Numbered from the stretch's first letter, positions 10,804 through 19,056 are shown. The stretch is DNA of 32,000 nucleotides from Pyrodictium occultum (GCF_001462395.1 NZ_LNTB01000001.1:1110001-1142000), one strand, 5' to 3'. Program-made: numbers and translations. Notes: a model not told the origin generated them from the letters alone.

Positions 10804-11583
10804 ATGGATGAGCGCGGGCGAGAGCAACTGGAGTGGGTCAAAGAAGCTGCGAAGAGGCTGGCCCAGAGGCAGAGGGGAGGAGGGGGCCCGCGGAGCAAGC
10901 TCGTGGAGGCGATAGCTGTACTACTGCTAGCGAGGCCTATGAGGGCCGCCGAGATAGCCCAGGTGGTGGGCAAGCCTACCAGGTATGTTAGCAGCTACCT
11001 GAGCTACTGGAGGACGCGGGGCCTCTTCGACTACGAAAACGGGTTCTGGGTGCTCACCCCGCAGGGGGAGGATTACGCCAAGAGCATACTAGAGAGGGAG
11101 ATGAACAGCCGCATAGCCCAGTACGCCGCACTAGCAAGACAGATACTATCGGGTAGCAATACACAGGTTAGTCAGGCAGCAAACAACAATGGAGCGGGCG
11201 GCGCGGGCGAGCAGTCAGGCAGAGTCCAGCCGTTCATTGCCACTCATACCATTAATCTCGACAAGAAACAGCAGGAGAGGATCCTCGCAGCCTGCATACG
11301 GGCACTGCTCGAGGAGCTCGAGATAGGGGAGGATGAGCGCCAGGTACTGGAGACCCTGCTAGACCACTACCGCAGATGGGGGATGACCTACATGTACCTA
11401 GACCAGCTGGAGAAGGAGCTAGAGGCTGACAGGGTATGGCTTGTCGGAGTGCTCCGCGGCCTCCAGACGAAGGGCCTCGTGTACCTCTACAGCGACCGGA
11501 GACTCGGCATGAGGATAGGGCTATCAAAGAGGGTTAAGGGCGCCATTGCGGCCTGCACGCGCACAGCCCTGGGGAGGGTATAG
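10804..11583 (+). CDS. protein with two winged-helix domains; possible WhiP/Cdt1-like replication initiator or plasmid-type DNA-binding protein
   Basis: Start trimmed to ATG 10804, because upstream the ORF overlaps the P-loop gene. The N-terminal wH is LLLARPMRAAEIAQVVGKPTRYVSSYLSYWRTRGLFDYENGFWVLTPQG. The C-terminal wH is MTYMYLDQLEKELEADRVWLVGVLRGLQTKGLVYLYSD. It lies next to a long repeat-rich non-coding region. Confidence 0.5.
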   Translation: MDERGREQLEWVKEAAKRLAQRQRGGGGPRSKLVEAIAVLLLARPMRAAEIAQVVGKPTRYVSSYLSYWRTRGLFDYENGFWVLTPQGEDYAKSILEREMNSRIAQYAALARQILSGSNTQVSQAANNNGAGGAGEQSGRVQPFIATHTINLDKKQQERILAACIRALLEELEIGEDERQVLETLLDHYRRWGMTYMYLDQLEKELEADRVWLVGVLRGLQTKGLVYLYSDRRLGMRIGLSKRVKGAIAACTRTALGRV

Positions 11584-11926
11584 TCTCCACCCCTACGCTC
11601 CCCCTGGAACATGGGTATTCTTGCGCCAGGGATTACCGCCCCGGGACCGTGCGGTATACATGAATAATGGTAGAGGAGGACATCATGCTTTGATATACTC
11701 CTGGTTTATGTTACCCAGCATTACCTCTAATAGATGCCAATACATGGTTTATACAAACCAGCAAAACTCTACAAGATAAAATAGAGGCACCATAGATGCT
11801 AGGAGCAGGCTAGGCGCGGTCAACAGAGTTTACAGCATACATGAGTAGATTGCAGGAGCCAAGGCCGCTATTGATAAGATATGAGCCGATGCTCCGAGCG
11901 CCGCCCTGGCGCTCTCTACAGGCTCG

Positions 11927-12274
11927 CTATAGCAGGGAGTAGGGAGCCCCCCGGGGCAGGGTGCTCTGCCACCCCTGAGGCCTGGCCTGGTTGTAGTCGT
12001 GGTTAGTAGGGTCCCAGGCGTGCCGGCAGGCCTTGGAGCATTGCCGCCTGTTAGAGGCCGAACGCCCCCTCCGGTTGCGGAGCTTCATGCCCAGGCAGCT
12101 GAGGCAGCCGCCGCCCACTTCAAGCCACTTACACCCCACCTCTGTATGCCCGCTGACTTCGAGGGCGTGCTCTACATACTCGTAGATGAGGCTGGATACA
12201 GCCCTCTCACCCACCCGCAACTCAGCAGGGTCACGAGGGCGGGGAGGCCGGGGTCGAGGGTGGAGCGCTACCAC
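11927..12274 (-). CDS. possible small zinc-ribbon protein
   Basis: 115-aa ORF with a GTG start. It carries CLSC...(18 aa basic)...CSKACRHAW, a CxxC...CSxxCR Zn-ribbon-like signature. The N-terminal third is Pro/Arg-rich and dubious, and the overlapping + strand ORF looks non-coding. Confidence 0.3.
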   Translation of the reverse strand: MVALHPRPRPPRPRDPAELRVGERAVSSLIYEYVEHALEVSGHTEVGCKWLEVGGGCLSCLGMKLRNRRGRSASNRRQCSKACRHAWDPTNHDYNQARPQGWQSTLPRGAPYSLL

Positions 12275-12451
12275 ATCTGGCTCTCAACGCATCTCAACAG
12301 CCTGTGGAGGAGGCTGAACTGGGGGTCAAAGTATACGTCTACATAGAGATCCCCGAGGAAGCTGCAACGGGGAGGAGGGGGAGGCCTGTTGAGAGGGCTG
12401 GGCAGGAGGGTTAACAGGCGTTTGCCATCACCGGCGCCGCGGGTGATTCGT

Positions 12452-12580
12452 ACCGACTGGGTCGGTTAATCTTACTGACGGTGTCGGCACGATTCACCGG
12501 CACGGTCGGTGAATGCCCGTCAGACAAACGTGCGACACCCGTCGCATAGGCGTCAGACGCCCGTAAGACGCCGTCTTACG
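12452..12580. repeat. cluster of five different short palindromes/hairpins
   Basis: accgac-tgg-gtcggt (12452-12466); attcaccg-N7-cggtgaat (12492-12514); tgcgac-accc-gtcgca (12531-12546); ggcgtc-a-gacgcc (12549-12561); cgtaagacg-c-cgtcttacg (12562-12580). The motif a[ct][ga]cccgt recurs at about 20-23-bp spacing (12513, 12535, 12558, 12578). Confidence 0.8.
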
Positions 12581-12650
12581 CCCGTTATACGGTCGGAGTG
12601 TTGGGGTGGGCAAAAATGCCCACCGCCTTTCAATTCTATCTGTTAGATCC

Positions 12651-12714
12651 TTTTGAGCAGTTATGGGCAATTTTGCCCGCCCTGACCCCTGTAGGTGGTT
12701 CTGAATCGAGGCTT
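12651..12714. repeat. box pair copy 1: module A (39 bp, 12651-12689) then module B (25 bp, 12690-12714)
   Basis: A = ttttgagcagttatgggcaattttgcccgccctgacccc, containing the dyad gggcaa-tt-ttgccc and a C-string. B = tgtaggtggttctgaatcgaggctt. A related dyad, gggcaaaaatgccc, lies at 12608-12621. Confidence 0.85.
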
Positions 12715-12857
12715 GACTGCTTCCGCCCTGACGCCCCCGGGCCCTCGCCACCACGTCTACCAGCCTTGAGACGTCCCTCGAGGAGACCCCTCCCCCCTCT
12801 TTCACCACAGTTTCAGTGTCTTTTGGATTCTTCGCTCTCCATTGCATAGAATTGAAA

Positions 12858-12898
12858 GTTTAGCGCTAAACTTAGCGTGCTAAGGAATGCTAAGGAAT
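12858..12898. repeat. 14-bp perfect palindrome followed by a 2 x 10-bp tandem repeat
   Basis: The palindrome gtttagcgctaaac is at 12858-12871, and gctaaggaat occurs twice at 12879-12898. In addition, tttcaattctat (12628-12639) is the inverted complement of atagaattgaaa (12846-12857). Confidence 0.8.
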
Positions 12899-12942
12899 GT
12901 TGCAGAACCAGCGCCCTCCATGGCCTCCCACCGCCCCTAGGG

Positions 12943-12975
12943 GCTAGGGGGGCTTGTAGCTCCAGCAACTCCTCC
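12943..12975. repeat. direct repeat copy 1 (gctagggggg...tccagcaactcctcc)
   Basis: About 26/33 identity with 13603-13634, including the exact 10-mer tccagcaact. Confidence 0.6.
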
Positions 12976-12992
12976 TCGAGCGGCCGCTCGAG
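12975..12992. repeat. 18-bp perfect palindrome ctcgagcggccgctcgag
   Basis: The sequence is self-complementary over all 18 nt. Confidence 0.9.
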
Positions 12993-13034
12993 AGGCCTGC
13001 CTGGGGGCAGCGCTGGGCCTGGCCTGCGGGACTT

Positions 13035-13074
13035 GAAATTTAACATGAAATTTAACATCCCTGAAATTTAACAT
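13035..13074. repeat. 3 x 12-bp iteron gaaatttaacat inside an AT-rich core
   Basis: Exact copies at 13035-13046, 13047-13058 and 13063-13074. The surrounding 13031-13160 is the most AT-rich stretch of the window. Confidence 0.85.
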
Positions 13075-13173
13075 TATTAAATCAACAAGAATATCTTTTA
13101 GATACTCAAGAATCTCTTCATTGAGAATGAGCATCATGCCAAGGTATCTATTAGAAATCCTCTCGGCTATCAC

Positions 13174-13193
13174 GGTCTGAGGGGGTCTGAGGG
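13174..13193. repeat. 2 x 10-bp tandem repeat ggtctgaggg
   Basis: Exact tandem copies at 13174-13183 and 13184-13193. Confidence 0.85.
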
Positions 13194-13240
13194 GCTGGGC
13201 CGGGGCTCGGGGGCGCCGCGCTATAGTGTACGCCCCGGAG

Positions 13241-13260
13241 CATCTGGGAGCATCTGGGAG
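13241..13260. repeat. 2 x 10-bp tandem repeat catctgggag
   Basis: Exact tandem copies. They are followed by the palindrome gagtcc-g-ggactc (13261-13273) and by gtgtttg twice (13276-13282 and 13288-13294). Confidence 0.85.
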
Positions 13261-13602
13261 GAGTCCGGGACTCCGGTGTTTGTTAGCGTGTTTGCCTGTG
13301 CTTCTCTGTTTAACGTCCATGTTTATTGACTATCGTTCTAGGGTATGCGTCCGCCAGCCTCCCACATGTTAAGCGTGCGCAGCCGCCACCCGGGCCCGCC
13401 CACAGAAATTTCAGGGGGCAGAGAGCGGGCCTGCGACTCTACCCTAATAATATACAGTATACTGCTAGCTACGGGATCCCTCAAGGAGCTCCTCCAGCTC
13501 CCTAAGGCTTTCAGCGATACGCCTGGGCAACCCCCTTAACCGTTCAACACCACCCCGAGCGTTCAAAAACGCGGAGAGCGCGGGGCCCCATGCCTGCAGG
13601 AA

Positions 13603-13634
13603 GCTAGGGGGCTCCTGCTTCCAGCAACTTCTCC
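13603..13634. repeat. direct repeat copy 2 (gctaggggg...tccagcaacttctcc)
   Basis: See 12943-12975. It is followed by ttaaactattaaacaagga, which loosely resembles ttaacattattaaatcaacaagaa at 13067-13091. Confidence 0.6.
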
Positions 13635-13706
13635 CGGCTAAACAACGCGTTAAACTATTAAACAAGGATGGGGGGTGGGGCGGGGGAGGCTCTGCGGGAC
13701 GCGTCC

Positions 13707-13768
13707 CGGGGTCAGGGCGGGCAAAATTGCCCAAACTGCTCAAAAGCCTCGATTCAGAACCACCTACA
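13707..13768. repeat. box pair copy 2: inverted relative to copy 1 and with module order swapped (B then A when read on the minus strand)
   Basis: The reverse complement reads tgtaggtggttctgaatcgaggctt + ttgagcagtttgggcaattttgcccgccctgacccc. Module B matches 25/25. Module A differs only at ttatggg versus tttggg. Confidence 0.85.
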
Positions 13769-13848
13769 CGATCGAAATCACCGGTGAGTGCGGCCCGGGC
13801 GGTCAGCCGCCTGAGCGCCGAGGCGGGGCCCGGGGTCTTGCCGACCAG

Positions 13849-14538
13849 TTATGCCTGCTTTTTGCTTCTGTCTTCAAAATAGTAGCTACATATATCTCTG
13901 ACCGGGCATTCTGAGCATTTGGGGCTTCTTGCCGTGCACACCTTTCTCGCAAAGTCCAGCACTCCGTAGTTGAAGTCTCTGGCGCTCTCAGGGTCTTTGG
14001 GCACGAGCATTTTTGCGAAGGCCCAGAGCTTGGGGTCTGTGTGAGGCCTCTTCTTGGCCGACTTCACGCTGAAAACCCTCTCTATGACCCTTATCATGTT
14101 CCTGTCGAGGAGGGGTTCGGGCCTGTCACAGGCCCCCAGGAGCACCTCCGAGGCTATGTAGTCGCCCACTCCGGGTAGCTTCTTGAGCTTCTCCTTGTCG
14201 CATGGGATCCTCCCTCCAAGCTTCTCCTCGACGAGCCTGGCCAGCTCTATGAGGTGCCGAGTCCTCTGGTGCTCTATGCCCAGCGGGCGTATGACCTCCT
14301 TCACCTCATTCTCTTCAGCGTTCAGGAGCGCCTTGGGCGACGGGTACCTCTTAATGAACTCCTCGTAAACCTTGATCACCTGCTTTGTGGTTGTCTTTCT
14401 CAGGAGGAGCGCCGCGACGAGGATGGCCCATGCATTGCTAGTATTCCTCCAAGGCAGGCCCCTGTCCCCATGCACCCTGTACCACTCTATTATCCTGCGC
14501 CTGAACTCCCTGATCTTCCCGCTGTCGGCCAGGAGCAA
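13849..14538 (-). CDS. HhH-GPD DNA glycosylase with a [4Fe-4S] cluster loop; Mig-like (T/U:G mismatch) rather than EndoIII
   Basis: The HhH hairpin is LPGVGDYIASEV, with Tyr where EndoIII has its catalytic Lys (GVGRKTA). The catalytic-Asp region is LLDRNMIRVIERVF. The C-terminal cluster is CTARSPKCSECPVRDIC (Cx6Cx2Cx5C). Confidence 0.8.
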   Translation of the reverse strand: MLLADSGKIREFRRRIIEWYRVHGDRGLPWRNTSNAWAILVAALLLRKTTTKQVIKVYEEFIKRYPSPKALLNAEENEVKEVIRPLGIEHQRTRHLIELARLVEEKLGGRIPCDKEKLKKLPGVGDYIASEVLLGACDRPEPLLDRNMIRVIERVFSVKSAKKRPHTDPKLWAFAKMLVPKDPESARDFNYGVLDFARKVCTARSPKCSECPVRDICSYYFEDRSKKQA

Positions 14539-14539
14539 G

Positions 14540-14637
14540 GAGGCCCCCTTTGGCTCCCGCCTTGAGGCACTTATGCTCGGTGAATATATATGCTTTATAT
14601 ATGTTTTTTAATATGCTTCATTGGGGGGTGCGTGCTG
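14540..14637. promoter_or_regulatory. AT-rich divergent promoter region between the glycosylase and endonuclease genes
   Basis: The sequence gaatatatatgctttatatatgttttttaatatg offers TATA-like elements on both strands, 30-45 nt upstream of ATG 14638 (+) and of start 14538 (-). Confidence 0.4.
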
Positions 14638-15510
14638 ATGCAACGCTTCACAGTGTCTCTGTGCAGGCGCGCGGTCAAGAAGGCTGTGAGGAGGGGCGCC
14701 CTCCCAGACGAGTACCTGCTCTACGATGACCCTCGCCGCAAGGTCACACACGCAGACCTGCTGTGTGAGGGCACCGTGAGGGGGCGTGATTGGGAGTCCT
14801 TCTCCAGCGTAGATGAGTGGATTGAGTGGCTGGGTTGGAGTACTGTTCTGCTGGATGAAAGGGACTACCTCACAGCCGCCGTTCACGCCCTCGATCTGGC
14901 CCCGAGGATCCCGGCGACGGATTACGGGACGACGAGGCAGAGGGATCTGGGACAGCTCTTGACAGACGCGATAAGGGGCTTCCTGGGCGAGATAGCCCTC
15001 GCCAAGTGGCTAGGCGAGAGGTTCGAAGTCAGAGTCGTGCTCGACTACAGGAAGGGCCCCCTGCCAGAATTCCTGCCCTCAGACATAAGGCTGGTGAACG
15101 GTAGGCCTCCCAGGCTCAATGTGAGCATAAAGACAACTAAGCTGAGAGGCATATGGCTGGACATACCTTACAGCCAGATAGAGAACAGCCACGTCTTCGT
15201 CCTGGTCAGGGTCGGGGTGTCGAGGGAGCACTTCCTCGCATTCCTCAAGGAGATAAGCGCCATTAAAGACAAGATCCTGTCGAAGGCGAGGGAGCTGGGG
15301 ATAATATCTGAGGATGATCTGGCCAGCATTTGGGATGCAATCCCAGAGTTTACCAAGATACCGGCCTGCATCGCCGGTTTCTTCGACAAGAGAGAGTATG
15401 AGGATGCAGTTAAGGAGAGGACGAGCATACTCCTGGCTGACGGGGAGGAGAAGAAGAGGTTTGTTGTCAACAAGTTTGTGGGCTACTGGCACCCCGAGCA
15501 GGACAAGTAG
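14638..15510 (+). CDS. candidate type II restriction endonuclease (PD-(D/E)xK-like signature)
   Basis: 290 aa from ATG 14638; the ORF-track start at 14590 lies inside the TATA-like tract. GFLGEIALAKWL...LPSDIRLVNGRPPRLNVSIKTTK fits E...D-x13-SxK. The gene sits between the Mig-like glycosylase and the C5 methyltransferase. No family recognised. Confidence 0.45.
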   Translation: MQRFTVSLCRRAVKKAVRRGALPDEYLLYDDPRRKVTHADLLCEGTVRGRDWESFSSVDEWIEWLGWSTVLLDERDYLTAAVHALDLAPRIPATDYGTTRQRDLGQLLTDAIRGFLGEIALAKWLGERFEVRVVLDYRKGPLPEFLPSDIRLVNGRPPRLNVSIKTTKLRGIWLDIPYSQIENSHVFVLVRVGVSREHFLAFLKEISAIKDKILSKARELGIISEDDLASIWDAIPEFTKIPACIAGFFDKREYEDAVKERTSILLADGEEKKRFVVNKFVGYWHPEQDK

Positions 15511-15549
15511 GATAGGCGAAGCCCTGGCCGAGATACTGGACGAAACAGA

Positions 15550-15897
15550 TTAAAGGTCTCGAATGAGCCCCTCCCAGTCCTCCCTCCTGCGCCTGAGAGC
15601 CCCCGAACTCACGATGAAGTGGAGAGTCCTCGAGAAGTTCCCAATGCCCTCAAACTCTATTTTGACGTCATTCGAGACTTTGAAGCCCTGACTCCTGAGG
15701 GTCTCGATGAGCCTCTCCCTGTTCGCCCCTGCCGCCATGGAAGAGGAATGTGTCTGGGAATGTCTGCAACCTCGCCCTTTCTCTCAGCGTTAGCATTGCT
15801 CTGTCTCGATCATAGTGGTAGCCGTGGGTCCCCCCGCCGCCGTAGGCGACCACAGTGTAGGCTGGCTTCAGCGGGTGGATCCTCCTGTAGACCAGGC
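15550..15897 (-). pseudogene. C-terminal methyltransferase segments in shifted frames (motifs IX-X region)
   Basis: A second frame (about 15960 down to 15668) reads IPPGENHEFVRGT...HPLKPAYTVVAYGGGG...RMLTLRERARLQTFPDTFLFHGG, the conserved C5-MTase C-terminal block. The original frame then resumes at 15738-15550 (RERLIETLRSQGF...GIGN...). The apparent shifts lie at G/C runs near 15957-15961 and 15725-15735. Confidence 0.6.
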
Positions 15898-17040
15898 TTA
15901 TGCCCCTCCCCTCAACCTCCCACCGCGTCCCCCTGACGAACTCGTGGTTCTCACCCGGGGGATTCTCTTCATCCTCTCAACCACCACGGGATCCTCCCTC
16001 GGGGGCTCTGTGGTGGAGTCGGGGAGCATGAGCCTGTCCACAGGCCTGCCCAGGTAGCCCAGCTCCCTCAGAACGGCCTCATGTTGCCTCAGGGCCTCCT
16101 CGATCTCCTCCGGGCTGGCCCTCTCCACTCCGTTGACTCTCAGGTAGTCCTCTACTGCGCTGAAAGTGAGCCTGTCCCACACTCTCCTCTTCCACTCCAG
16201 GGCGCGCTGAGTGCCCAGCTCGCGCCAGAGGCCCTCCCACTTCCGCATCACCTCCCTGTACTTGTCGTCGAGCCTGTCCAGCCGGTCGCCTTCGAAGACC
16301 TCGATGGGTGTGAGAGGGTACTTGCGGAAGAGCCAGCCTCTCCCGCGCAGGGCGGCCTCCAGCCTGCCCCTCAGCCTCCAAAGCGCGGCTGTGCTCCCCC
16401 GGAGCAGGTCTTTCCTCACGCCCACTATGATCAGCCGCTCCCTCTTCTGGGGGACTCCGAGGCTGGAGAAGTGGACGATGCCGCTGAAGATTATCTCGTA
16501 GCCCTCAGCTCCGTCCGCGCCGTCCGCCTTTATGAGCCTCCTCACCTCATCCCAGCGGAGCTTCAGGTTGGCGAAGTCGTCCAGGATGACCTTGTAGGCG
16601 AGCCCCTTATTGGCGCTGACGAGGCCGGGCACGTTCTCGAACACGAAGGCCTTGGGCTGGAGGGTGGCGAGAGCCCTCACGAAGTGGGCGTACAGCCTCC
16701 CCCTCCTGACCTCTATCCCCCTCCTGTCCCAGTCGGGGCCGCGGACAATGGAGAAGTCCTGGCATGGGGGGCCACCCGCCACCACGTCAACCCCCGCATC
16801 AGAGAGCCCGGCAAAGTCCACCCGGGCCACGTCGCAGGCCAGGATGACGCCCGGCCGAGCCTGGACTTCCAGCTCCCCACCGCACAGCTCCAGCTTGAGC
16901 CCCAGGTTCCTCGCGTACGTCATCGCCGCGGGGACCCGCAACTCGTTAGCGAACACAATCCTGAACCTCCCCGTCTGGACGAGGCCCAGGTCAAGCCCCC
17001 CAGCACCCGAGAATAGCGATGCGACCCTGTACACCTTCAC
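15898..17040 (-). CDS. DNA (cytosine-5)-methyltransferase, N-terminal and central part (motifs I-VIII plus the variable region)
   Basis: Motif I LFSGAGGLDLG, motif IV GGPPCQDFS, motif VI FVFENVPGL, motif VIII QKRERLIIVG. The GTG start overlaps the stop of the upstream RHH gene (GTGA). Confidence 0.85.
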   Translation of the reverse strand: MKVYRVASLFSGAGGLDLGLVQTGRFRIVFANELRVPAAMTYARNLGLKLELCGGELEVQARPGVILACDVARVDFAGLSDAGVDVVAGGPPCQDFSIVRGPDWDRRGIEVRRGRLYAHFVRALATLQPKAFVFENVPGLVSANKGLAYKVILDDFANLKLRWDEVRRLIKADGADGAEGYEIIFSGIVHFSSLGVPQKRERLIIVGVRKDLLRGSTAALWRLRGRLEAALRGRGWLFRKYPLTPIEVFEGDRLDRLDDKYREVMRKWEGLWRELGTQRALEWKRRVWDRLTFSAVEDYLRVNGVERASPEEIEEALRQHEAVLRELGYLGRPVDRLMLPDSTTEPPREDPVVVERMKRIPRVRTTSSSGGRGGRLRGGA

Positions 17041-17237
17041 ACTTCACCACCTCCCATCTCCCTCTTAACCTTAGACGCCACAATCGACTTCTCCGACAGC
17101 CACGACAGCACTATATTCCTGACAAGCTCAGCATCGTCGCTACCCATCACGCCACGAAGCATCTCTATAAGCTCCCACTGCTCCCGCGTAAAGGTGACCT
17201 GAACCCTCTTAACCCTCCCCCTCCTCTGCTCGCTCAT
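17037..17237 (-). CDS. ribbon-helix-helix (CopG/Arc/MetJ-like) DNA-binding protein, likely regulator of the methyltransferase operon
   Basis: 66 aa from ATG 17237. The segment RVKRVQVTFTREQWELIEMLRGVMGSDDAELVRNIVLSWL gives a beta strand plus two helices. It has a 4-nt overlap with the MTase start. Confidence 0.65.
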   Translation of the reverse strand: MSEQRRGRVKRVQVTFTREQWELIEMLRGVMGSDDAELVRNIVLSWLSEKSIVASKVKREMGGGEV

Positions 17238-17535
17238 AGCACACCAAACTCCACAGAAACACACTACGCACACACGGCTAATAAAGGTTCATTCACCCCG
17301 CCCAGGCCAGCCCTCTTAAATTCCTCGGGGCCGTGAATCTGAGTCATGTCGCGGACTGGCACGAGATATTATTTTGAGCGCGATCCTCTGACTCTTTTCC
17401 TGCCGTGCTTCTATCAGGTATAATGTTGAAAAGCCCTAAAAAGACGCTTTGCTCTCTGTTATTGGCTCAAAAACGGTGTTGCACCCGCGGAAAATGGTGT
17501 CAAAGACTGCAAGAAGCTCCAATGCAGGCCATTGC

Positions 17536-17829
17536 TTAGTTTTGCACGGTAAGTGGAATATGCTTAGTAGCTTCTGAGGGTTTAGCGTGAAGAAATCCGC
17601 GAGAGGAGGAGTAATGTAGGACTGTTATCGGCGTTGCTTGGAGCTCTGCTAGCTCCTGCTGTCTGAGCGAGATCTCCGCCTGAATCCATATAGTGACCAG
17701 CTGGAAGTATATGAGCGTGGCGATGAGTCCGTCATGTAAGCCTAGGCTGTATAATATTAGGGAGGGTATCAGTGCCAGCAGGAGAATTGCGAAGCCCAAG
17801 TCCTTTAAGGGCACGCGCGGCACGGGCAA
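17536..17829 (-). CDS. small membrane protein (hypothetical)
   Basis: 97-aa ORF with two hydrophobic helices (LGFAILLLALIPSLILYSL and LIATLIYFQLVTIWI) in a lower-GC stretch of the island. Confidence 0.35.
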   Translation of the reverse strand: MPVPRVPLKDLGFAILLLALIPSLILYSLGLHDGLIATLIYFQLVTIWIQAEISLRQQELAELQATPITVLHYSSSRGFLHAKPSEATKHIPLTVQN

Positions 17830-17866
17830 GACAGGCCCCCACAGCGTTCCCGATGTTGCCAGGCGG

Positions 17867-18712
17867 TTAAGTGAGGCCCACCTCAGCCAGGTGCTCCAGG
17901 TATTTGGGGTATGCCTGGTCTGCCTCCCCTAGGAGGTCTTCGTACCTCGCCTCGCTCACCCTCAGCTCCCCAAACCTGCTCTGCATGAACCTCGCGGCCT
18001 CCCTCCCCACAGTTTTAACCATGAGCCTCCATGCAACCTTCCTCATGTACTTGGGCAGTACTAGGCCGTGCCTCACCGCGTACCTTCTGGGCTGGTGCCT
18101 GCCAACCCTCCTAGGGGCTACCCGCATCAGCAGCTCAAGGGTCTCCCTAGAGAAGTATATCCACTCGCACTGCTTGGCCGAGCCCCTGAGGCCCATGTAG
18201 TACCTGCAGAACCCTTTATCGCCGGGGCACACCAGCCTCTCGGTTGTGACCCCAACTCCCGGTATCTCCACGGTCCCGCCAGGATCCCAGGACTCAATCA
18301 TCCTCAGCACGTGCGTGTACCTGGCCCCTGACTCGATCATGACCCTGTAGACGGTGTAGTAGACCGGGTGGTTCTCCCCCAGGAGTTCTAGGGTCCTCCT
18401 AACGTCCTCGAGGCTTATGGGGTACGGCTTGACGTCCAGCCTGTACCCCCGGGAGGGCACCGCCTCCGTTAGCCACCCGAATGCTTCGGGGCTGATCCTC
18501 CTCCTGTAGTAGAGGTATTGGACGTAGTGCCTGAATACGTTCCGGAGCCACCTATTCGGGTGGCTCACAACATAGTCGACCAGGTCCTCTGAGAGCTCCC
18601 TGCCCTCCAGGTATTTCGTGAACAGGCTCCTGTAGTACTTGAGTGTGGCGGGATCCCTGACCCTCCTGCGCCCCTTACGCTCCCTCAGGATGCTCTCGAA
18701 GTCGCGTCCCAC
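17867..18712 (-). CDS. archaeal tyrosine recombinase/integrase (SSV/pNOB8 superfamily), catalytic part
   Basis: ESGARYTHVL supplies the first catalytic Arg, LPKYMRKVAWRLM is the K/RxxR block that replaces HxxR in SSV-type integrases, and AARFMQSRFGELRVSEARYEDL supplies the nucleophilic Tyr. Confidence 0.7.
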   Translation of the reverse strand: MGRDFESILRERKGRRRVRDPATLKYYRSLFTKYLEGRELSEDLVDYVVSHPNRWLRNVFRHYVQYLYYRRRISPEAFGWLTEAVPSRGYRLDVKPYPISLEDVRRTLELLGENHPVYYTVYRVMIESGARYTHVLRMIESWDPGGTVEIPGVGVTTERLVCPGDKGFCRYYMGLRGSAKQCEWIYFSRETLELLMRVAPRRVGRHQPRRYAVRHGLVLPKYMRKVAWRLMVKTVGREAARFMQSRFGELRVSEARYEDLLGEADQAYPKYLEHLAEVGLT

Positions 18713-18897
18713 CTCAATGTGACGCCGGAGAAGCTGAGGCCGGGCATCCTCCTCAAGCCGTCCCTGAACTCCCTGACAGCGAAGCTGAGAATGGCCCTCT
18801 TCAGGTACTCATCCCTTGAGGCCGGGGCCGTGATTTTGAGTGCGAGTCCGTAGTCAACGCTACCATCCTCCCCGACAAGCCCCAGGGGCTTATCCAT
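18685..18897 (-). CDS. probable integrase N-terminal segment in a different frame
   Basis: 70-aa ORF (MDKPLGLVGEDGSVDYGLALKI...SFSGVTLRW) that runs into the integrase ORF. One extra G in the run at about 18707-18710 (minus-strand aggtggga) would give ...VTLRWGRDFESIL... as one 351-aa protein. Confidence 0.5.
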   Translation of the reverse strand: MDKPLGLVGEDGSVDYGLALKITAPASRDEYLKRAILSFAVREFRDGLRRMPGLSFSGVTLRWDATSRAS

Positions 18898-18984
18898 GCC
18901 CGGGGATCCACCGTATAGGCTGTTGGAGGGGGTATTACAGTCATATAAAAGGTGCTCTCTGGCCCCTGTCCTGGAGCGGTGTAG

Positions 18985-19056
18985 CCCTCGGCGGTGATGA
19001 GGCTGATTTGAGCCGAGTAGTGTGGATGTGGAGTGGAGACCTCGCTGAGCCGAGGG
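18985..19056 (+). ncRNA. candidate C/D-box sRNA (2'-O-methylation guide)
   Basis: An 8-bp terminal stem (ccctcggc at 18985-18992 with gccgaggg at 19049-19056) brackets C box gtgatga (18994-19000) and D box ctga (19045-19048). The internal spacing is canonical: 12-nt guide ggctgatttgag, D'-like ccga (19013-16), 9-nt spacer, C'-like atgtgga (19026-32), 12-nt guide gtggagacctcg. It is intergenic. Confidence 0.5.

Follow-up and report, generated by a model that had tools for sequence, protein, structure and literature searches.

A probable WhiP-type replication origin beside a lineage-specific mobile island in Pyrodictium occultum

The whiP locus and its gene-free gap

The window analyzed here comprises 32 kb of Pyrodictium occultum DNA and contains a gap of ~2.2 kb (11584-13848) between whiP, the gene of a winged-helix initiator protein, and a MutY/EndoIII-type glycosylase gene. 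In Sulfolobus, the replication origin oriC3 depends on WhiP, not on Orc1/Cdc6; replication starts in the intergenic DNA that directly follows whiP, and the WhiP sites found in vitro lie there as well (PMC3607249). This origin carries neither an origin recognition box (ORB) nor a mini-ORB (PMC4010727). The P. occultum gap is best explained as a composite of three parts, namely the whiP-downstream spacer, the stump of a small gene, and the non-coding arm of an insertion, and we regard this explanation as a whole as likely. The whiP-adjacent origin would then belong to a known origin type, and the repeat-dense DNA beyond it is probably the decaying arm of an unrelated, lineage-specific island. 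From whiP onward, the following features were assigned:

10804-11583, plus strand: whiP, winged-helix initiator protein of 259 amino acids (aa), 100% identical to P. occultum CF15_05890
11584-11640, no strand: conserved block directly 3' of the whiP stop, with a CCACCCCTACGC box followed by a dyad
11614-11620 and 11631-11637, no strand: dyad arms GGTATTC and GATTACC, separated by N10 and slightly imperfect in the window
11641-11800, no strand: AT-rich candidate unwinding element containing the ucm core, 40.6% GC compared with 58.8% for the window
11749-11757, no strand: ucm core TTATACAAA, at +165 from the whiP stop
11801-12050, no strand: rest of the ancestral intergenic spacer, weakly conserved and with no coding signal (280-440 bp from whiP to the small open reading frame (ORF) in relatives)
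12051-~12250, minus strand: 3' remnant (pseudogene) of the small ORF, reading ...KWLEV[GGGCLSCLGM]KLRNRRG, a frameshift, then AFGL and a stop
~12250-13848, no strand: non-coding left arm of the P. occultum-specific insertion, absent at all syntenic Pyrodictiaceae loci

The 259-aa protein matches WhiP of Sulfurisphaera tokodaii (E 1e-54, 48% identity) and shares 73% identity with the 'replication initiator protein WhiP' of P. abyssi, a name that its orthologues bear in many sources. A 16-sequence alignment spanning Desulfurococcales and Sulfolobales contains 41 invariant columns. Pfam returned winged-helix matches for the protein, all of them sub-threshold. Judged by this homology, the protein is a clear WhiP orthologue; the S. 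tokodaii match and the invariant columns bear out the initial annotation of the locus, which had described a two-winged-helix protein akin to WhiP. WhiP of S. islandicus binds a direct repeat within its own ORF (Samson et al. 2013, PMC3607249). Inside the P. occultum gene, a perfect 10-nt direct repeat, AGTCAGGCAG, occurs at 11170-11179 and 11213-11222 with a spacing of 43 nt, in the variable linker region.

The gap itself is free of genes, as had been proposed. An independent gene call, made on a contig 99.8% identical to the window (L001), left the interval from whiP to the EndoIII-like gene without any gene. When the window's own genes were used to train a codon log-likelihood scan, 11550-13850 gave no coding signal, with flanking genes scoring 30-50, and a six-frame Pfam search across the gap found no match. 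Furthermore, the gap ORFs matched nothing in PHROGs, the only Rfam match under gathering and E-value thresholds was a spurious mir-330, and a blastn comparison of the gap with phages and plasmids returned no match.

A conserved block and the ucm motif downstream of whiP

The block that directly follows the whiP stop aligns with P. abyssi, Hyperthermus butylicus, P. delaneyi, and the closest relative (L098, WhiP 77% identical), and it is also present in 12 further Pyrodictiaceae. Its core, TGGGTATTCTTG..GG.AATACC, is kept in at least 75% of 16 Pyrodictiaceae. More specifically, the Pyrodictiaceae version of the post-stop dyad reads GGTATTC-N9-10-GAATACC, and ~100 nt beyond it these genomes have AGTTTATACAAAC in common. 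By analogy with the sites that edge the Sulfolobus oriC3 intergenic region, we consider 11584-11640 a candidate WhiP site. Outside the Pyrodictiaceae (L015-L094), boxes of the CTAC(T/A)AC and (G)TATTAT(G/T)G types recur in the first 80 nt after the stop, before the ucm is reached; scored by ad hoc patterns, these are candidate lineage-specific WhiP sites.

The AT-rich island that the initial annotation had placed after whiP is present at 11641-11800, and its center (~11660-11780, 36-41% GC) is the second most AT-rich spot of the window. It contains the only match to TTATACAAA in the 32 kb, where 0.02 are expected. In the window, this ucm core sits inside a near-palindrome, TGGTTTATACAAACCA, and a degenerate second copy lies 43 nt upstream (11702-11720). 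All 9 bases of the core are common to ATTATACAAAAG, the 12-bp probe centered on the Sulfolobus ucm that is bound by the ucm-binding protein, UBP (PMC12141716 supplement). The ucm is essential for the firing of oriC1 and has been found in all three Sulfolobus origins as well as in both Aeropyrum pernix origins; the ubp gene is restricted to Desulfurococcales and Sulfolobales (PMC12141716).

To place this motif in a broader frame, 80 further whiP loci from public genome contigs were surveyed together with those of P. abyssi, H. butylicus, and Pyrolobus fumarii, leaving 78 usable loci. Of these, 46, drawn from Desulfurococcales, Acidilobales, and Sulfolobales, have the exact 9-mer no more than 250 nt beyond the whiP stop. 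Control windows contained it at a rate of 0.27% (5/1839), and AT-rich windows at 0.9% (7/743). The region downstream of whiP is enriched ~200-fold over the control windows, and the enrichment extends over three orders.

ORB-type elements did not stand out. Allowing 3 mismatches, the window holds 3 ORB or mini-ORB matches against 4.9 expected by chance, consistent with the lack of these elements in oriC3 (PMC4010727). No orc1/cdc6 or AAA initiator gene was found within ~10 kb in the gene tables with Pfam of L001 and L003, which cover all but the window's outer ends.

Because of the WhiP homology and the conserved block with its ucm, the origin core was assigned to 11584-~11800. The evidence strongly suggests that this segment, extending at most to 12050, represents an oriC3-type origin core and the counterpart of Sulfolobus oriC3.

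The split small gene and the inserted island

Synteny was compared across ~20 loci from P. abyssi, H. butylicus, P. fumarii, P. delaneyi, L098, and a dozen Pyrodictiaceae metagenome-assembled genomes. In the relatives, whiP is followed by the AT-rich spacer, a convergent small ORF, and then mostly ThermoDBP-RP, Nre, and eRF1. In all other Pyrodictiaceae loci with enough downstream sequence, whiP, the small ORF, ThermoDBP-RP, and Nre lie within ~1-1.7 kb. The small protein, encoded convergent to whiP beyond the origin region, comprises 61-80 aa in the Pyrodictiaceae, ends in LYWE[VI]K[IL]RNRRRAFGL, and belongs to no Pfam or NCBIfam family. Examples of the small ORF in relatives are:

L003, 11197-11439
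L004, 11054-11263
L006, 11111-11296
L098, 6427-6669

In P. occultum, only the 3' end of this ORF follows the spacer. The remnant carries a 30-nt insertion and a frameshift, and the stretch at 12049-12087 retains 82% DNA identity to L098. A 'possible Zn-ribbon ORF' had been suggested here (11927-12274, minus strand); it is instead the frameshifted remnant of the conserved small protein, which is cysteine-free. Decayed coding sequence, which the initial annotation had set against an origin, is found in the gap at 12051-~12250. The small ORF's own start, ATG GAT AAG, lies near 18896, with a TATA box near 18950, 6.6 kb away from the 3' remnant. Nucleotide similarity to the relatives ends at 11637 and restarts at 18988.

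Because the small ORF is split and synteny restarts at 18988, we interpret ~12250-18888 (6.6 kb) as a P. occultum-specific insertion that splits the small gene. It is present in 0 of ~20 other Pyrodictiaceae loci, L098 included. Its left boundary is uncertain by ~50 nt. The only candidate for an attachment-site (att) core is the 10-mer GAGGCCGGGG, found at 12244 and 18818, and a tRNA search returned none, so no tRNA served as integration target. The contig of the same organism assembled independently from SRR5453782 (L002) breaks at window position 12147, within the small-ORF remnant and just before the island.

This comparison bears directly on the architecture that had first been proposed for the gap, in which inverted boxes around a second AT-rich core were taken as ORB-like. 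In its full form, this proposal treats the whole gap as a single chromosomal origin of ORB type, on which WhiP or Orc1/Cdc6 would act. The adjoining whiP gene fits this view, as does a layout that superficially resembles an unwinding element between two ORBs. However, none of the other Pyrodictiaceae examined, all of which keep whiP and the proximal block, has the segment concerned (12452-13768) at the syntenic site, and neither the chance-level ORB-like matches (3 against 4.9) nor the gene tables, with no orc1/cdc6 within ~10 kb, provide the expected partners. We therefore consider a single ORB-type origin highly improbable. The arm's repeats cannot form the conserved WhiP origin, because they belong to an inserted island that is missing in relatives.

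Beyond the gap, the island carries a type II restriction-modification (R-M) cassette and ends in an integrase gene:

13849-14538, minus strand: MutY/EndoIII-type 'nicking' glycosylase (PADLOC E 1e-42)
14590-15510, plus strand: restriction enzyme, shortened (PADLOC E 1.9e-129)
15898-17040, minus strand: C5 methyltransferase, shortened (PADLOC E 1.5e-178)
17037-17273, minus strand: small ORF of the cassette
17867-18891, minus strand: integrase pseudogene at the island's right edge (Pfam PF16795)

Pfam and NCBIfam agree with PADLOC on the cassette (13849-17273), and the same cassette is found in L099-L102. Compared with intact cassettes, the window shows a 220-bp inversion at 15509-15728 together with a deletion of ~47 nt (compare L100 2529-2748). 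The inversion sits where the restriction enzyme and methyltransferase genes converge with their 3' ends, and both proteins lose their C-termini. Flipping 15509-15728 back in silico restores the C-terminus of the restriction enzyme, and the severed tail persists on the minus strand in an ORF at 15550-15738. In a second read set of P. occultum, DRR667394, the same junction (L001 14707-14795) shows instead a deletion of ~130 nt between two AGGGCTTC repeats. By this comparison, the inversion and the deletion are two independent events that killed the restriction enzyme. An 11-nt tandem repeat, TATATATGCTT, is present in 3 copies at 14585-14618, in the divergent promoter region of the EndoIII-like and restriction enzyme genes. 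In Acidilobaceae and Caldisphaera, C5 methyltransferase genes are likewise found close to whiP, but an ancestral synteny was rejected, given an identity of only 23-38% and the absence of such genes in Pyrodictiaceae.

Relatives of the integrase are full-length at 425-445 aa (family ~430 aa) and, in L095-L097, border genomic islands with defence or plasmid-like cargo. In P. occultum, tblastn recovered residues 86-147 and 150-422 in two different frames, with a frameshift near 18706 that is also present in the second P. occultum assembly. The N-terminal 85 aa were not found anywhere in the window. A search of the island's left end and 17350-17650 gave only one short match, the peptide KHGRKRVR, which scored 38 against a shuffle maximum of 37 and was discarded. 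The integrase remnant is fused in frame to the promoter and ATG GAT AAG (18896-18888) of the split host small ORF. A 19-nt direct repeat, CGGGGCCGTGA[A/T]T[C/T]TGAGT, with 17/19 positions identical (17326-17344 and 18823-18841), brackets the integrase and a membrane ORF of 97 aa. It may represent a former att pair or a chance occurrence, and no N-terminal piece of the integrase was found next to it. Because the integrase is a pseudogene and the R-M genes are broken by inversion or deletion, the island is eroding.

The arm between the small-gene stump and the cassette contains the repeats for which the gap was first singled out:

12425-12600, no strand: palindrome tract, partly nested and partly side by side, with CGTAAGACGCC-like repeats of 11-nt period at 12551-12591
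12608-12745, no strand: left box cluster, with an A-like dyad (12608-12621), box A (12650-12689), box B (12690-12714), and a degenerate A-star (12715-12745)
12665-12678: box A dyad GGGCAATTTTGCCC
13031-13160, no strand: most AT-rich segment of the window, 27.7% GC
13705-13768, no strand: right box pair, with inverted A (dyad 13719-13732) followed by inverted B (13744-13768)

The palindromes are real, the tract at 12425-12600 folding at z = -4.4 on the plus strand and z = -3.6 on the minus strand. Between 12664-12714 and 13708-13768, complementarity reaches 100% for box A (26 nt) and likewise for box B (25 nt), where 0 such matches are expected by chance. The presence and inversion of the box pairs, as initially described, are therefore upheld, but the boxes are flipped one by one and their left-to-right order is kept. 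A proper inverted repeat is formed by B with A-star (12690-12745) and A with B (13705-13768). The A dyad, GGGCAA-N2-TTGCCC, occurs 3 times in the window (0.11 expected), the third copy lying at 12608-12621. The second AT-rich core with its triple repeat was likewise recovered: the 13-mer TGAAATTTAACAT is present in 3 copies at 13034-13074, against 0.11 expected. The core is flanked by unrelated 10-12-nt tandem duplications (12878-12899, 12975-12997, 13174-13194, and 13237-13260), and 9 of the 19 rows that Tandem Repeats Finder reports for the whole 32 kb lie in 12235-13260. The arm's tandem repeats are mostly different 10-12-mers, each doubled once, and look like slippage in unconstrained DNA. 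Two further candidates in the arm were rejected, namely a small RNA with a terminator-like hairpin at 13095-13290, which folds at only z = -1.7, and a cruciform at the left boxes (z = -0.3).

No related sequence came to light for the arm. The 18-22-mers of the A and B boxes have 0 matches in public genome contigs. In viral and metagenome contigs, the A box is matched by chance over 19-25 nt, the similarity reaching no further. The B box, for which only viral contigs were scanned, yields 0. A tblastx comparison of the arm with all fetched loci found no match. The arm is not part of the conserved R-M cassette, and the gene-free flank of the related cassette in L101 is dissimilar to it.

These features allow for two readings of the arm other than relic DNA. 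As an alternative, the initial annotation had considered that the region might be the replicon of the adjacent integrated element. The arm (12250-13848) could in this case be a still-functional replicon, with the AT core as unwinding element and the A and B boxes as initiator sites, and the element would be a second extrachromosomal one in the course of capture beside the WhiP origin. Its low-GC core with the exact 13-mer, the perfect inverted boxes on both sides of that core, the 11-nt-period repeats, and the position within an integrase-bordered island agree with such a function, and a palindromic dyad occurring three times is typical of a dimeric binding protein. However, neither a rep, primase, or helicase gene nor, in six frames, any vestige of such a gene was found in the island. 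The duplications look more like slippage than like an iteron array, the ORB motif is not above chance, no collection searched gave any sign of conservation, and the rest of the island is visibly decaying. As a whole, this makes a functional island replicon unlikely. Slightly less likely still is a bolder form, in which a plasmid-like element would be in mid-capture next to the WhiP origin and the arm would still serve it in cis, as a live replicon or partition module whose triple dyads, B boxes, iterons, and AT core work with host factors alone. If true, current databases would contain no relative of this origin type, and the locus would show in progress the 'extrachromosomal element capture' that has been put forward for oriC3 itself.

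Alternatively, the segment bounded by the inverted boxes (12690-13768) could be an element resembling a miniature inverted-repeat transposable element (MITE), non-autonomous in nature, or a segment that can be inverted by site-specific recombination. Its inverted repeats of 25-26 nt are perfect and stand ~1 kb apart, a recombinase gene is located in the same island, and small inversions do occur there. Nevertheless, the preserved box order does not yield simple terminal inverted repeats, a target-site duplication is absent at either candidate end, and neither the window nor the public genome, viral, and metagenome collections searched yielded another copy. Furthermore, the second P. occultum assembly has the segment in the same orientation, and the integrase is a pseudogene. 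We find a mobile or invertible segment quite improbable. The best reading of the arm is that of relic backbone DNA of the inserted element, which has presumably lost its function.

A proposed course of events and comparison with known systems

Several points weigh against a WhiP origin flanked by a decaying insertion. The placement of an origin at the whiP locus draws on homology and conservation, and a 32-kb window cannot reveal a switch in GC skew. About 40% of whiP loci do not have the exact 9-mer. The ucm is also not specific to origins, as UBP occupies >300 sites in the S. islandicus genome and is enriched in intergenic DNA. From this, one could argue that there is no origin here, and that the post-whiP block is a shared terminator or regulatory spacer of convergent genes, with its ucm being one of many UBP sites. 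The ~200-fold enrichment, specific to the region downstream of whiP and extending over three orders, speaks against this view, as does the fact that the same position in Sulfolobus is the mapped, WhiP-dependent oriC3 (PMC3607249), and we give it little credence. With regard to the island, GAGGCCGGGG is the sole candidate att core, so that the left boundary is approximate and the arm and the integrase may or may not derive from a single element. Finally, as points against a relic arm, the 25-26-nt boxes have kept 100% identity, the dyad is present three times, and no other 130 nt of the window are as AT-rich as the core of the arm; this is also compatible with a cis-element on which selection still acts.

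On the favored reading, initiation at this locus can be outlined by homology. WhiP would bind the conserved boxes at the edge of the spacer, for which the CCACCCCTACGC box and the GGTATTC-N10-GATTACC dyad are candidates. UBP would bind the TTATACAAA ucm within the AT-rich stretch, and the MCM helicase would be loaded at, and depart from, this stretch. An integrase-bordered island with a type II R-M cassette has been inserted and is now decaying. The insertion has split the conserved small gene, leaving its 3' stump at 12051-~12250. The palindromes, A and B boxes, tandem duplications, and AT core would then be relics of the element backbone outside the chromosomal origin, possibly former operator, recombination, or replication sites that were reshaped by small inversions and duplications, as in the cassette.

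According to these findings, Pyrodictium, which is among the most thermophilic genera in culture, probably has a WhiP/oriC3-type origin, with the 11614-11637 dyad and the 11749-11757 ucm as precise, testable cis elements. The occurrence of the ucm beside whiP in Desulfurococcales, Acidilobales, and Sulfolobales supports an ancient common WhiP-UBP origin module. The findings also call for caution, since the most conspicuous repeats beside the initiator gene appear to be lineage-specific mobile DNA, and only the comparison with related genomes told these from the conserved origin core. The initial annotation had suggested a synteny comparison with the Aeropyrum and Sulfolobus loci; the comparison across the Pyrodictiaceae separates the conserved whiP-downstream block from the island. 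The proposal of an origin beside whiP is thereby supported for the ucm block just downstream and not for the repeat-dense part. The proposed span did include the conserved AT-rich island, but the structural reasons given for it were wrong.

The island resembles archaeal integrative elements with SSV/PF16795-type tyrosine integrases in its edge integrase, its R-M cargo, and its absence from the same site in relatives. It differs from them in an integrase that lacks 85 N-terminal residues and is frameshifted, in having no tRNA target and no clear att repeats, in an insertion inside a small protein gene, and in a 1.6-kb non-coding arm. Mig.MthI and M.MthTI on the Methanothermobacter plasmid pFV1 form a type II R-M cassette with a mismatch glycosylase. 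Like such cassettes, that of P. occultum unites a C5 methyltransferase, a restriction enzyme, and a 'nicking' enzyme of the MutY/EndoIII family, but here both the restriction enzyme and the methyltransferase are cut by the 220-bp inversion.

With the ORB-type Orc1/Cdc6 origins (oriC1 of Sulfolobus, Pyrococcus, and Aeropyrum), the gap shares only the idea of inverted boxes around an AT-rich segment; it has no ORB or mini-ORB and no adjacent orc1/cdc6, and its boxed segment is not conserved. With the ucm/UBP module (Dhanaraju et al. 2025, PMC12141716), the gap has the 9 bases of the UBP probe, an AT-rich setting, and a ubp-bearing lineage in common. In P. occultum, the motif differs in lying within the near-palindrome and in having a degenerate second copy, and its UBP site is a predicted one.

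Among the closest counterparts are Sulfolobus oriC3 and the syntenic A. pernix origin, which have the orthologous initiator gene and lie, like the candidate described here, directly downstream of whiP. Shared with these whiP origins are also the AT-rich stretch with TTATACAAA, the absence of ORB and mini-ORB, and the conserved neighbors Nre and eRF1. Sulfolobus oriC3 with its WhiP was reportedly the subject of work by Robinson and Bell in 2007. That origin has been mapped experimentally, and the Pyrodictium candidate is predicted from sequence. The putative WhiP sites differ as well, with the Pyrodictiaceae having a dyad of their own, GGTATTC-N9-10-GAATACC, and other lineages having CTACTAC and GTATTATGG-type boxes. 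What sets P. occultum apart from oriC3, finally, is that a mobile island landed ~500 bp beyond the ucm.

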